This document shows positions 675-44,520 of a stretch of 64,000 nt of DNA, in pieces. Made by a program: the position numbers and the translations under genes. The stretch spans positions 1 through 64,000 of the IMG/VR virus record IMGVR_UViG_3300014168_000003, one strand, 5' to 3'. Position 1 is the first letter of the stretch. Every line of letters begins with the position of its first letter. Source of the DNA: a virus. Lineage: Duplodnaviria > Caudoviricetes. The notes below the pieces were generated by a model that saw only the letters and a list, made by a program, of their open reading frames with translations, was not told where the DNA came from and ran no database searches.

Positions 675-723
675 TCGTTACTCCTTTGCTCTATGATACC
701 ACAAATTGAGGGAATCCGTATAC

Positions 724-750
724 AAAAACCCCCGCAATTTCTGCGGGGGT
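724..750 (-). terminator. Rho-independent terminator
   Basis: Minus strand ACCCCCGCA-GAAAT-TGCGGGGGT followed by TTTT. Confidence 0.8.
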
Positions 751-836
751 GGGGCAAGGACCAAGTTAAGTCCTTCAAACTACCGGGAGATGGGAGGGAG
801 GGGGAAACCATCCGCACCGGCAAGGCGTGTTGCCTA
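724..836 (-). ncRNA. Candidate small RNA with C-rich loop
   Basis: ORF-free gap bounded by a GAGTAATA motif (842-849) and a terminator; three hairpins, one with loop UUUCCCCCUCCCUC. Confidence 0.45.
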
Positions 837-1085
837 TTACGTATTACTCGGTTTCTGGTCCTGATACTCCATCGAGCCAGAGAAATCCTTATCTGGAACC
901 TCCAACCCAACCAGAGCGTCCGCACCTTCAGCGATAGAGCGGAGCAAGGCATAGAGCCCCTCAATGGACTCCTGGGATTCATTCTTAAACAAGATCTGAA
1001 TGGCCCCCTGTGCGCCGGTAATATCAGTCTTATCGAACATGAGATTGTTCTTTAGCCGATCAGCTACTTCTTGTGTGATGATCAT
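837..1085 (-). CDS. Hypothetical protein
   Basis: 82-aa ORF coupled (TAATG) to the upstream gene. Confidence 0.65.
   Translation of the reverse strand: MIITQEVADRLKNNLMFDKTDITGAQGAIQILFKNESQESIEGLYALLRSIAEGADALVGLEVPDKDFSGSMEYQDQKPSNT
842..849 (-). promoter_or_regulatory. Phage promoter-like motif GAGTAATA
   Basis: The 14-mer CGAGTAATACGTAA is identical to the one at 19221-19234. Confidence 0.6.
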
Positions 1086-3663: not shown

Positions 3664-3861
3664 TTACGAGAACATCGCCTTCAGCGCAGGTACGATCTCA
3701 TGGGAGCGGCACAGGACCGCATAGATGACGTAGAGCCATCCGAAGAAGAAGTGGAGCACACCCCACCAGAAGGAGTGATTCAGGGCCGCACTGAGGATCA
3801 CCGAAACGACCGATCCGACCGTGATACACCCACCACCCGTATTTGCAGAACTATTGCTCAT
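3664..3861 (-). CDS. Small membrane protein
   Basis: 65 aa with two hydrophobic segments; AGGAGG RBS. Confidence 0.7.
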   Translation of the reverse strand: MSNSSANTGGGCITVGSVVSVILSAALNHSFWWGVLHFFFGWLYVIYAVLCRSHEIVPALKAMFS

Positions 3862-3911
3862 CAGAGCCTCCTACCTTATGATACTCGGTCGGAGGACAAT
3901 CTGTATACGTT

Positions 3912-8850: not shown

Positions 8851-9476
8851 TCTGCTGCTCCCATGGTGGCTTTCAAGAAAATAATACCGGACTTTACCGT
8901 CTTAAAACTGATGACCGGTGTGTCTAGTTTCGAAAATTTTCGAGAAGCCAAGTATACAATAATTGATACTCCATGTAGTTCACACAAATTAATGCTGCTC
9001 AAATTTGGTGCCACACTGGAAAACATAATAGAGGGCTTGGCATCAGTGCTCTCTAATCGACTGAGTGCCATAAGTTCAGGTTGAAAAGTAGCCCGACAGA
9101 TCCTTTCTGGATCACATCCCATCGTATCACAATGGGTGAAATATGCGGGTTTACGATTGAAGCCGGATCCAAGGATTCGTAAATCCTCATCCGTAACAAT
9201 TGCTCCTATGTGATTTCTGAGGCACTCAGATTTCAGAGTTTCAGACTGGATCAGGTTGAATAAAAAGGTCAACCGTTGGTTGAGATTAGGGGTCTCCAGC
9301 AACCGCACTACTCGGAGTGCTTTATCACTGGGTAGCGAAACATTACACCAATCAAATCCCTCATCATACATCAGGGCCATGTAATCTGTATCGACCAGCA
9401 CCATGTCCTGGTGTAACTGGCTACTATTCATCAGCTTCCAGGGTATCAGGGCTTGGGGCTCAAGTTTAAACTCCAT
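8847..9476 (-). CDS. dCMP deaminase-like protein lacking Zn ligands
   Basis: SECLRNHIGAIV...GSGFN matches dCMP deaminase; HAE is replaced by QPE and PCxxC by PNLSS. Confidence 0.7.
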   Translation of the reverse strand: MEFKLEPQALIPWKLMNSSQLHQDMVLVDTDYMALMYDEGFDWCNVSLPSDKALRVVRLLETPNLNQRLTFLFNLIQSETLKSECLRNHIGAIVTDEDLRILGSGFNRKPAYFTHCDTMGCDPERICRATFQPELMALSRLESTDAKPSIMFSSVAPNLSSINLCELHGVSIIVYLASRKFSKLDTPVISFKTVKSGIIFLKATMGAAE

Positions 9477-20714: not shown

Positions 20715-20750
20715 GGCTACCCCCTCTACAGGAGGAATAAAAAGTCTGGG

Positions 20751-20782
20751 AATAAAAAACCGGGGCTCATCAAAGCCCCGGT
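20751..20782 (-). terminator. Rho-independent terminator
   Basis: ACCGGGGCT-TTGATG-AGCCCCGGT followed by TTTTTATT. Confidence 0.85.
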
Positions 20783-21083: not shown

Positions 21084-21323
21084 GAAATGGTGGTGCTTTT
21101 GTTCGGAAAGTTTGTTCTCTTCCTTGCAATTTTCACAAATCAAAACTCCGTCCAGGGCATCCATCTGATCTACCATGGACAGTTCAGCCAAGTCGAAGGG
21201 AGCCCTGCACTGGAGGCAGCAAGGAATTGCCTTGGAGCCTGCCGGAGCCCTTTTCTCATATGTCGAGCGTGTCCCACCCTTCGGTTCTATACGGTCTAAC
21301 TTACTAAGGCTCAAGACACCCAC
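21078..21323 (-). CDS. Small Zn-finger protein
   Basis: CLQC...CENC; AAGGAG RBS before TTG. Confidence 0.6.
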   Translation of the reverse strand: MGVLSLSKLDRIEPKGGTRSTYEKRAPAGSKAIPCCLQCRAPFDLAELSMVDQMDALDGVLICENCKEENKLSEQKHHHFE

Positions 21324-21362
21324 CCAAACTCCTTCTACCTGCTCTACTAATACTGCGTTTTG

Positions 21363-25179: not shown

Positions 25180-26255
25180 TTTGACTCCTTGGTCAGTTTA
25201 ATTTTTATTACTGTAGAATGTTGATTCGATTTATCCGAGGTTTCACTTTTCGGGGGTAGGATCGAATGTTCATCCAATTCCGCGATCATTTTTGGGGAGA
25301 AACGGTAAGAATCACCGTAATACTTAACCACATCCTTGTAGGTTTTGATCCGACTATCATCTTTGAACAGAGTCTCCATGATGGCCTGTTTAAGGATTGA
25401 ATAGAAGATAAACGCACTCTTTGGTTTTTTGATGTCGCTAGACTCAATGGCCGCTAATGTTTCTTTAATTATAACTTTTGGGTCTTTGATGCCACTGAAT
25501 ATCAACTTCTTTGTCATGGCAGTCACCGTCTTCTGCCGACCATACTTGACTTTTTTCTCATCCGGTTCGTCAGATGGGAGAGGTTCGGTAACCTCTACAA
25601 CAAACTCCAGATCTTTGGCCAAAGTCATGATGGCCTCATCACTGTACTCTTTCACATACTCATCCACCAGATCAGAATAATAGAACACCCTAGAGTGAGG
25701 AGGCACAAAACTCAAATCCTTAAGATTGTGTAGGGGGGTGTCGATGAACATTTGCCTTGTCTTGAGTTCGACTCTGACCAGGGCATAACCCCGATCTATA
25801 CGAGACACATGTCCACAGAACCCTTTGTCCAAACCATCCAGAATACGAACAAAAGAGCCGACCTGAATAGATTCGGGGCTCTTCATGAACTTCTCTTCAG
25901 TCGTCTTGATCAGGTCTTGGACGTAATCGTCTTCCACCATCAGAGCCTTATCGATCCGCTGCTGCTCTCCCTCACAAAGGACTCCCACCACACCCGTGAC
26001 TCCTTTGAATTTCTGCAATTCTTTCTTTCGATCAGAGCGAAGGAACACATAGGAGGAGGTGGATAGGCTGAACAGATTAAGATCTCGGTCTTCAATCGGA
26101 ACAAACACTTCACAAGATCCCCCATCCTTGAAGATGGTGGGCATGGTTTTACCAACACGACGAATCACATTCTCTACCGTTCGCTCCGACCTGACTTCAA
26201 GGATATACCACTTGAGTCCCTTGAGCTTTTTGATATCACCGTATTGAAGAATCAC
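25158..26255 (-). CDS. nusG: NusG/RfaH-like transcription factor with C-terminal extension
   Basis: NGN domain (KWYILEV...EVFVP...SYVFL...GVVG) and KOW (IQVGSFVRILDGLDKGFCGHV); about 175 extra aa. Confidence 0.85.
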   Translation of the reverse strand: MILQYGDIKKLKGLKWYILEVRSERTVENVIRRVGKTMPTIFKDGGSCEVFVPIEDRDLNLFSLSTSSYVFLRSDRKKELQKFKGVTGVVGVLCEGEQQRIDKALMVEDDYVQDLIKTTEEKFMKSPESIQVGSFVRILDGLDKGFCGHVSRIDRGYALVRVELKTRQMFIDTPLHNLKDLSFVPPHSRVFYYSDLVDEYVKEYSDEAIMTLAKDLEFVVEVTEPLPSDEPDEKKVKYGRQKTVTAMTKKLIFSGIKDPKVIIKETLAAIESSDIKKPKSAFIFYSILKQAIMETLFKDDSRIKTYKDVVKYYGDSYRFSPKMIAELDEHSILPPKSETSDKSNQHSTVIKIKLTKESKCQTPPE

Positions 26256-31043: not shown

Positions 31044-31115
31044 TCAGAAGAACGGTCACTACAGCTATTATACCCACAACATCGACAATTCGTATAGGCT
31101 CATTCGCTGGTTTGT

Positions 31116-43845: not shown

Positions 43846-44452
43846 GATGCAGAGCTAAGAAGTATTTCTTTATCAGATACTTAGCATCCTCCACCGTTTC
43901 AATCAAGGTAGGGGCTACGGTGAGAAACACGGGGGCCAGATCTTTCACTGTGAATGGGTCTGACTCCTCTTCGTCCTCCTCCTCTTCTTCATCCGGCTCA
44001 ATAGGTTGTCCTGCAATCGGAGGGAGCTTGAAGTGCTTCTCCAGCCATTGCAAGGCGGCTACCTTATTGATGCCAAAGTATTTAGCGATAAAATTCACAT
44101 TATCGTAGAATTGATCCTTGGGGGTGCCGGGACAACCGAAGCAAGAGGCTGAATTGGACTCATCATAGAAGGTGAAGCTGGGGGTAGAGTCTGAACCATG
44201 GAAGGGGCAATTGATCTTGTTCCCTGACATATGCCATAGGTGAGCCCTGCTCAGAATCTCTTCTGCCAGATCCTTGAACACGATCTCATTGCGAACTCGC
44301 TCCCAGCGTTCCGGAGCAATTTCTTGGTCCAGACCTGGGAGCTTGTCTCCAAATTCAAAATCTTCTTCACTCATTCTTAGCCTTTGGTACAATATTACTC
44401 TGTAGGTGCGAAAGGATTCGAACCTTTCCGCAAGCAGGGGATTTAGCCCCAC
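43739..44452 (-). CDS. Stand-alone CHC2 primase Zn-binding domain protein (likely start ATG 44374)
   Basis: CPFHGSDSTPSF.FY...CFGC, then D.V.F..K...I....AL..L; acidic linker; no TOPRIM. Confidence 0.88.
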   Translation of the reverse strand: MGLNPLLAERFESFRTYRVILYQRLRMSEEDFEFGDKLPGLDQEIAPERWERVRNEIVFKDLAEEILSRAHLWHMSGNKINCPFHGSDSTPSFTFYDESNSASCFGCPGTPKDQFYDNVNFIAKYFGINKVAALQWLEKHFKLPPIAGQPIEPDEEEEEDEEESDPFTVKDLAPVFLTVAPTLIETVEDAKYLIKKYFLALHLDDPLFLARVLGRKRLESIRLSGRVSNEGTGRSNK

Positions 44453-44520
44453 CTACTACCCGTGAGATAACTCGCCGCTAAGCATGGGAGCCGTGATCCC
44501 AAGTCATCCACACCTTTACT

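Follow-up and report, generated by a model that had tools for sequence, protein, structure and literature searches.

The minus strand of positions 837-724 in the window (the whole 64,000-nt stretch of viral DNA analysed in this study) folds into four adjacent hairpins, the last of which is an intrinsic terminator. The fold is conserved in related phages, the element does not encode a protein, and the octamer motif that precedes it is strand-biased, conserved and typically located before genes. With about even confidence, we interpret this element as the gene for a small non-coding RNA (sRNA) of ~112 nt, its transcription, seed and targeting being deduced from the sequence. Transcription would start 5-6 nt after the octamer, a putative promoter of the SAGTAWTA class, and would end at the intrinsic terminator (SL4); as the same sequence also ends the mRNA of an upstream 82-aa open reading frame (ORF82), processing of a 3' UTR could be a further source of the RNA. 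The working part of the RNA would be the C/U-rich apical loop of the second hairpin (SL2), which comprises 12-14 nt and is held open by a stable stem. This loop might pair with G-rich stretches (GGGAGG or GGAGGGG type) of a single mRNA or a small number of mRNAs, and such pairing would lower the translation or stability of the targets, as with bacterial sRNAs that carry C-rich loops.

The window covers 64 kb from the start of a 74,231-bp IMG/VR record (G000), which is estimated to be 24% complete. Nearly all of its genes are located on the minus strand, and they include those for an NAD-dependent DNA ligase (3633-1459), a DNA polymerase, a helicase, a portal protein and a terminase. Two relatives were found via the ligase: a complete genome of 313,597 bp (G001; 313.6 kb), with a ligase 97% identical to that of the window, and a 106-kb fragment (G002), with a ligase of 75% identity. 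A distant blastn search of the INPHARED cultured phages with 4 kb gave no match, and the stretch was present in the DNA runs of at least 13 studies, covering soil, peat, wetland, pond and lake. The element belongs to a clade of uncultured phages with genomes of roughly 310 kb. The features of the element and its surroundings in the window are as follows.

837..1085, minus strand: ORF82, the upstream 82-aa open reading frame, ending ...CCG AGT AAT ACG TAA, with its stop codon at 839-837
842..849, minus strand: octamer GAGTAATA, one copy of SAGTAWTA, overlapping the last codons of ORF82 in the window
835..837, minus strand: predicted 5' end of the sRNA, placed by the 5-6 nt spacing after an octamer-type promoter
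823..835, minus strand: SL1, stem AGGC/GCCU, loop AACAC (ACAC in relatives), pair probability 0.6-0.84
781..822, minus strand: SL2, basal stem UGCCGG/CCGGUA and apical stem GGAUGG/CCAUCU, pair probability 0.88-1.0
794..807, minus strand: SL2 apical loop, the presumed seed, 14 nt, UUUCCCCCUCCCUC (12-13 nt in relatives, UUCCCCUCCCUC)
756..775, minus strand: SL3, stem AAGGACU/GGUCCUU
724..750, minus strand: SL4, intrinsic terminator, stem 750-728 and U-tail 727-724
693..722, minus strand: second promoter-like motif, TATACRGATT-N13-GTATCAT, directly after the terminator, serving the 80-aa open reading frame and not part of the RNA
674-432, minus strand: next gene, an 80-aa open reading frame (ORF80), downstream of the element

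No credible gene was found in the 162 nt located 3' of ORF82, up to the ATG at 674. The predicted fold of 837-724 has an energy of -50.3 kcal/mol (z = -2.9); two of 200 shuffled sequences folded as well, and the real fold was better than the remaining 198. A preliminary description of this DNA had outlined a four-part hairpin unit with a C-rich loop, which is confirmed by the folding, the loop being unpaired with a probability of at least 0.95. The stem GGATGG/CCATCT that was proposed to close the loop corresponds to the apical stem of SL2 (pair probability 0.88-1.0), the proposed hairpin AAGGAC/GTCCTT corresponds to SL3, the stem of which is invariant among the variants, and the proposed strong terminator is SL4, with a G+C-rich stem of 9-10 bp (scored at 10 pairs, 7 of them G-C), the loop GAAAU and a U-run. 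Its first hairpin, GGCAA/TTGCC, was placed in the wrong register and has an ensemble probability of approximately zero; the ensemble favours AGGC/GCCU, and the TTGCC in question really belongs to SL1 and the base of SL2. SL1 is present in all four variants of the element, with a 1-nt deletion in the loop of some. The mean unpaired probability of the SL2 loop is 0.95-0.98 across all variants, and its exact C-tract occurs once in the window, with looser matches at the level expected by chance. The stem of SL3 and the linker preceding it, GUAGUUUG, are invariant, and the SL3 loop is found as UUAACU, UUAAGU or a longer UGAUGA form.

The upstream ORF82 had no Pfam or PHROG family match, and its homologues in metagenomes form five clusters with 76-100% identity. 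When queried against IMG/VR, ORF82 recovered no relatives, and a neighbouring 128-aa open reading frame located upstream of it, which is absent from G001, gave weak partial matches only. In one low-depth contig, which was left aside in weighing the evidence, position 830 is joined to 1027, such that ORF82 is missing and the element is kept. In a metatranscriptome (one wetland run), a single 262-nt contig with a depth of ~3 was identical to positions 689-950 and crossed both the predicted start and the terminator, which could reflect mRNA read-through or DNA carry-over; the neighbouring open reading frames had no coverage in this run, an absence to which no weight is attached.

With a covariance model (R1), the element was found as a single copy in G000, in the complete genome G001 and in G002, and it was also present in IMG/VR and JGI contigs (L022, L026, L027 and L028). 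Four sequence types (about five distinct variants) were distinguished, all with the same fold. The apical stem of SL2, GGAUGG/CCAUCU, is changed on both strands to GGUGG/CCACC in the relatives, and the substitution G813A in one metagenome contig converts a G.U pair of SL2 into an A-U pair; the SL2 loop comprises 12, 13 or 14 nt in the different variants. Structural conservation in relatives had been named in the preliminary description as a check, and it is borne out by this common fold and by the compensated stem changes. In the 106-kb relative and four contigs, the terminator has a different stem, with the same form and a longer U-run. One variant (L027) consists of a 5' half of the window type and a 3' half of another type; this recombinant indicates that the variants are mosaic, and thus the stem compensations may represent only one or two independent events. 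RNAalifold on four sequences (MAFFT alignment) returned a covariation term of 0, and the folds of the individual variants were used because the MAFFT alignment misplaces the compensated deletions.

A 1-nt deletion and a 2-nt insertion in the loop break every open frame among the four variants, and we rejected a small protein gene on the grounds that these indels cut or shift the frames. The region had initially been called ORF-free, which is correct in that no frame is conserved but is inaccurate in that open frames do cross it (50 codons in the window). The compensated stem of SL2, the terminator that was replaced and not lost, and the broken frames together indicate that this is a conserved non-coding RNA unit rather than a plain spacer. 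The gene downstream of the element differs in all three genomes, and the element is retained in each. Two more distant jumbo phages (G003 and G004) showed no match to the element and no ORF82. Pattern scans of bacterial and archaeal genomes gave no match, and those of IMG/VR and JGI recovered the same clade only, together with chance matches that have no C-rich hairpin.

The octamer was also examined as a class of motif. SAGTAWTA occurs 18 times on the minus strand of the window and five times on the plus strand, compared with ~2.1 expected under a second-order Markov model, and it is ~9-fold enriched on the coding strand. Of the 18 minus-strand copies, 13 precede a start codon by 4-71 nt and two are directly after terminators; the genes preceded by octamers include those for the ligase and the helicase, and at the other copies the usual arrangement is a Shine-Dalgarno sequence 8-12 nt 3' of the octamer. 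Alone among the copies in the window, the one at 849-842 precedes 168 nt that are free of start codons and contain hairpins and a terminator instead. In G001 and G002, the octamer is 3- to 4-fold more frequent than a reversed-pattern control and is co-oriented with the genes; in G001, 33 of 99 sites are located 0-80 nt upstream of a co-oriented start, versus 5% of random positions. Full conservation was observed for 14 of 15 aligned window octamers in G001 and for 12 of 15 in G002 (random octamers, 33% and 20%, respectively). No -35-like partner of the octamer was found, nor was a sigma-70 region 2 in the complete relative G001. The enrichment, strand bias, position before starts and conservation of the octamer are indicative of a promoter-like, functional signal. 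These observations suggest that SAGTAWTA, now on firmer ground, is the candidate promoter of the clade, its promoter activity being deduced from these properties. The late promoters of T4-type phages consist of the 8-bp TATAAATA and have no -35 element. Similarly, SAGTAWTA is found without a -35 partner, shortly before the ribosome site and strictly co-oriented with the genes; it differs from the T4 late promoters in sequence and is a candidate promoter only.

The motif directly after the terminator, TATACRGATT-N13-GTATCAT, was also found at 3878-3907 on the minus strand, before the gene at 3861, and in weaker form at 9363-9392 and 31067-31096, both on the minus strand. These four matches in the window, compared with 0.18 expected, are located directly before ribosome sites. 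This motif is distinct from the octamer and may represent a different temporal class. At the corresponding place in G002, there is a consensus TTGACA-18-TATACT together with another octamer.

Several other loci associated with octamers were observed. In G001, at 25420-25504 on the minus strand (L034), an octamer CAGTATTA is followed by ~70 nt without a credible open reading frame and then by a strong terminator, which could be a second sRNA unit. An intergenic region of the window with the octamer CAGTATTA (21300-21362, minus strand) is 100% and 97% identical to the two relatives, above almost any surrounding coding DNA. The stretch at 44405-44460 (minus strand) of the window resembles the 3' part of a tRNA, with a hairpin that may correspond to an anticodon arm and a T-arm containing GGTTCGAATCC, and is located directly before an octamer GAGTAATA and a small open reading frame; it was called by neither ARAGORN nor Rfam.

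The alternative that survives best is that the element is a structured 3' UTR and terminator of the ORF82 mRNA, which would stabilise or insulate this message. There would then be no separate RNA and no target in trans, and the octamer would be incidental or a weak driver of read-through. The mRNA of ORF82 would indeed carry the element as its 3' UTR, the element is directly 3' of ORF82 in every genome seen, and the initiation regions yielded no specific class of targets. The genome-wide level of conservation is also in keeping with such a 3' UTR: the block from the octamer to SL3 is at only the 72nd and 89.5th percentile, and several other intergenic regions are equal. Locally, however, this block is more conserved than its neighbours, which favours the sRNA gene: it shares 90.6% and 86.7% identity with G001 and G002, respectively (ORF82, 76.5% and 74.4%; 3' end of the ligase gene, 84% and 68%). 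In addition, the other terminators in the window are located ~15-35 nt after their stop codons and have no extra conserved hairpins, and thus the ~85 nt of conserved hairpins before SL4 is unusual. Moreover, GAGTAATA at 849-842 is coding in the window and is located after a TGA stop in the relatives, yet it is invariant in all variants, and the octamers elsewhere are under selection. The protection of a 3' end also requires no 14-nt loop held open by a compensated stem. Given these observations, we regard the 3' UTR interpretation as rather unlikely.

An improbable alternative is a cis-acting leader, in which SL1-SL3, or a protein that binds this C-rich loop region, would set whether transcription stops at SL4 or reads on, as an attenuator or by put/nut-like antitermination. 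The order of promoter-like motif, hairpins, terminator and genes is that of a leader, and inspection of two variants shows that 5 nt in the 5' strand of SL2 are complementary to part of the 5' half of the terminator. Against this, the three genomes have different downstream genes, each with a promoter-like motif of its own right after the terminator, the putative alternative pairing is lost in recombinant variants (L027 and L024), and SL2 is a highly stable hairpin (pair probabilities, 0.9-1.0). A feature acting at the DNA level, either a short-loop G-quadruplex motif at 785-804 of the plus strand or a recombination junction common to mosaic genomes, is highly improbable: the four G-tracts at 785-804 are retained in all variants and the genes flanking it on either side are reshuffled from relative to relative, but G-quadruplex motifs are not rare (27 in the 313-kb relative), the G-tracts follow automatically from the C-rich loop and its stem, and the compensated stem changes and the working terminator point to constraint on an RNA. 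As a separate observation, six of the seven short-loop G-quadruplex motifs in the record are located on the template strand of genes.

The interpretation of the element as an sRNA gene was also considered with respect to known RNA families. A search of Rfam gave nothing at the gathering level, and at E <= 10 only weak, terminator-driven matches were obtained; the ar14 model (RF02344), for example, scored 14.8 bits, well below its gathering score of 58.8 (E = 2.3). Cuckoo RNAs are composed of two to four adjacent hairpins, each with the loop motif CCUCCUCCC, which is C-rich and resembles an anti-Shine-Dalgarno sequence (PMC4615179). The element resembles these alphaproteobacterial RNAs (alpha-r14 / RSs0680 / CcsR1-4, SmelC397 / NfeR1) in its short length, adjacent hairpins, terminator and C-rich loop. 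CcsR1-4 are reported to be encoded immediately 3' of the gene for a small protein (PMC8034643), and the position of the element directly downstream of ORF82 is similar. Unlike in the cuckoo RNAs, the C-rich loop is found in SL2 alone of the three hairpins, with the motif CCCC(C)UCCCUC, the loops of SL1 and SL3 being AACAC and UUAACU. The element is also single-copy, whereas cuckoo RNAs are present in multiple copies per genome, and the protein encoded upstream of it is not a DUF1127 protein.

In the Firmicutes, the unpaired UCCC or CCUCC tracts in the loops of RNAIII, RsaE/RoxS and LhrC are described as seeds against G-rich ribosome-binding regions (as summarised in PMC4615179). The SL2 loop likewise holds UCCC twice in unpaired form. 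The Firmicutes RNAs usually display the motif in at least two unpaired regions, whereas the element does so in one loop; there is no sequence or structural homology to RNAIII, RsaE/RoxS or LhrC (no Rfam match even at E <= 10), and, unlike for these RNAs, pairing with ribosome sites is unsupported for the phage's own genes. Type I 3'-UTR sRNAs such as DapZ and MicL of enterobacteria are transcribed from their own internal promoters; these are Hfq-dependent RNAs of the host, and their transcription starts have been mapped. The element is comparable in that a promoter-like motif lies within the upstream open reading frame or at its end and the terminator is shared with that mRNA, but its promoter, in contrast to those of DapZ and MicL, is a putative one, deduced from the recurrent phage octamer. 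As for the generic hallmarks of sRNA genes, the element has no conserved reading frame and a 3' intrinsic terminator, and its candidate for an own promoter is the conserved, gene-proximal octamer 5-6 nt before the predicted start. The family of the element was not found to be described in Rfam or the literature searched. The element is thus probably a new sRNA family of a known kind, the C-rich-loop sRNAs.

The possible targets of the loop were analysed in the complete relative, G001. Among 381 of its genes, the words that dominate the ribosome sites (AAGGAG, AGGAGA and TAAGGAG) share only GGAG with the complement of the loop. A loop complement of at least 7 nt was present in nine of the 381 initiation regions, a 1.8-fold enrichment over internal windows, and a corresponding complement of the canonical 16S tail was present in 24 (9-fold). 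The duplex energies between the loop and the initiation regions (mean -7.5, best -20.2) were equal to those of shuffled loops. This weak enrichment and the equal performance of shuffled loops leave a general role in decoying or repressing the ribosome sites of the phage unsupported, and with it the general anti-Shine-Dalgarno role that had been proposed for the loop. The wider proposal of a translational-repressor sRNA stands as regards the discrete non-coding unit, with its motif, hairpins, exposed loop and terminator, and finds no support as regards a general ribosome-site decoy or a repressor of host or early mRNAs. An alternative seed in the invariant linker GGUAGUUUGAAGG was also considered and rejected, as it performed worse than shuffled sequences.

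The gene at 20714-19929, which has a GAGGGGG ribosome site, was rejected as a target, because the site is constant despite the change of loop length in the relatives and is already tied up in a local hairpin. In this hairpin (window positions 20715-20760, minus strand), the ribosome site is paired with an upstream UUCCUCCU, an anti-Shine-Dalgarno arrangement in cis that is kept in both relatives.

One specific candidate target was recognised, in a gene for a shortened RF2-like protein that contains the C-terminal part of the PCRF domain and the RF-1 domain. The window's own fragment contains no RF2-like gene; the homologue is located as follows.

G001:212614-213274 = L043:12614-13274; also L180, L181:1402-1520 and L182:1351-1470: class-I release-factor homologue

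The best loop site in G001, GAGGGAGGGGAA at 212640-212651 on the transcribed strand, ranks first among ~104,000 windows (-25 kcal/mol) and is exactly complementary to the 12-nt loop of G001 over its whole length; the chance expectation for an exact 12-mer is ~0.02-0.04, assuming uniform composition. It lies within codons 9-13 of the RF2-like gene. This gene is in two frames, split 65 nt beyond GAGGGAGGGGAA at CGGAGG-GGA-CUU-UGA, an arrangement like that of the bacterial prfB +1 frameshift site. The Shine-Dalgarno-like stimulator of the frameshift site is the 17th-best loop site in G001, and both sites are conserved in G002. The frameshift motif CGGAGG-NNN-CUU-U(GA/AG) is conserved down to relatives at 50% protein identity. 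In G003 and G004, in which the sRNA and ORF82 are absent, the frameshift site is kept, and the first site is spelled GAGGGCGGCGAG or GAAGGCGGCCAA, with GGC codons, and does not pair. The possibility of an RNA complementary to the release-factor site of G003 itself was rejected, both extra matches being inside coding regions. These matches raise a post-hoc and doubtful lead, namely that the sRNA might control the release-factor gene of the phage by masking both sites, thus tuning frameshifting and hence the supply of release factor. We know of no described sRNA that masks a frameshift-stimulating Shine-Dalgarno element, and, if the lead were true, it would raise the importance of the element.

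To our knowledge, hardly any work has explored regulatory RNAs in giant phages. In this context, a unit that runs from a promoter-like motif to a terminator and displays a clear seed candidate, conserved across phages of soil, peat, wetland, pond and lake, provides a concrete object to test.
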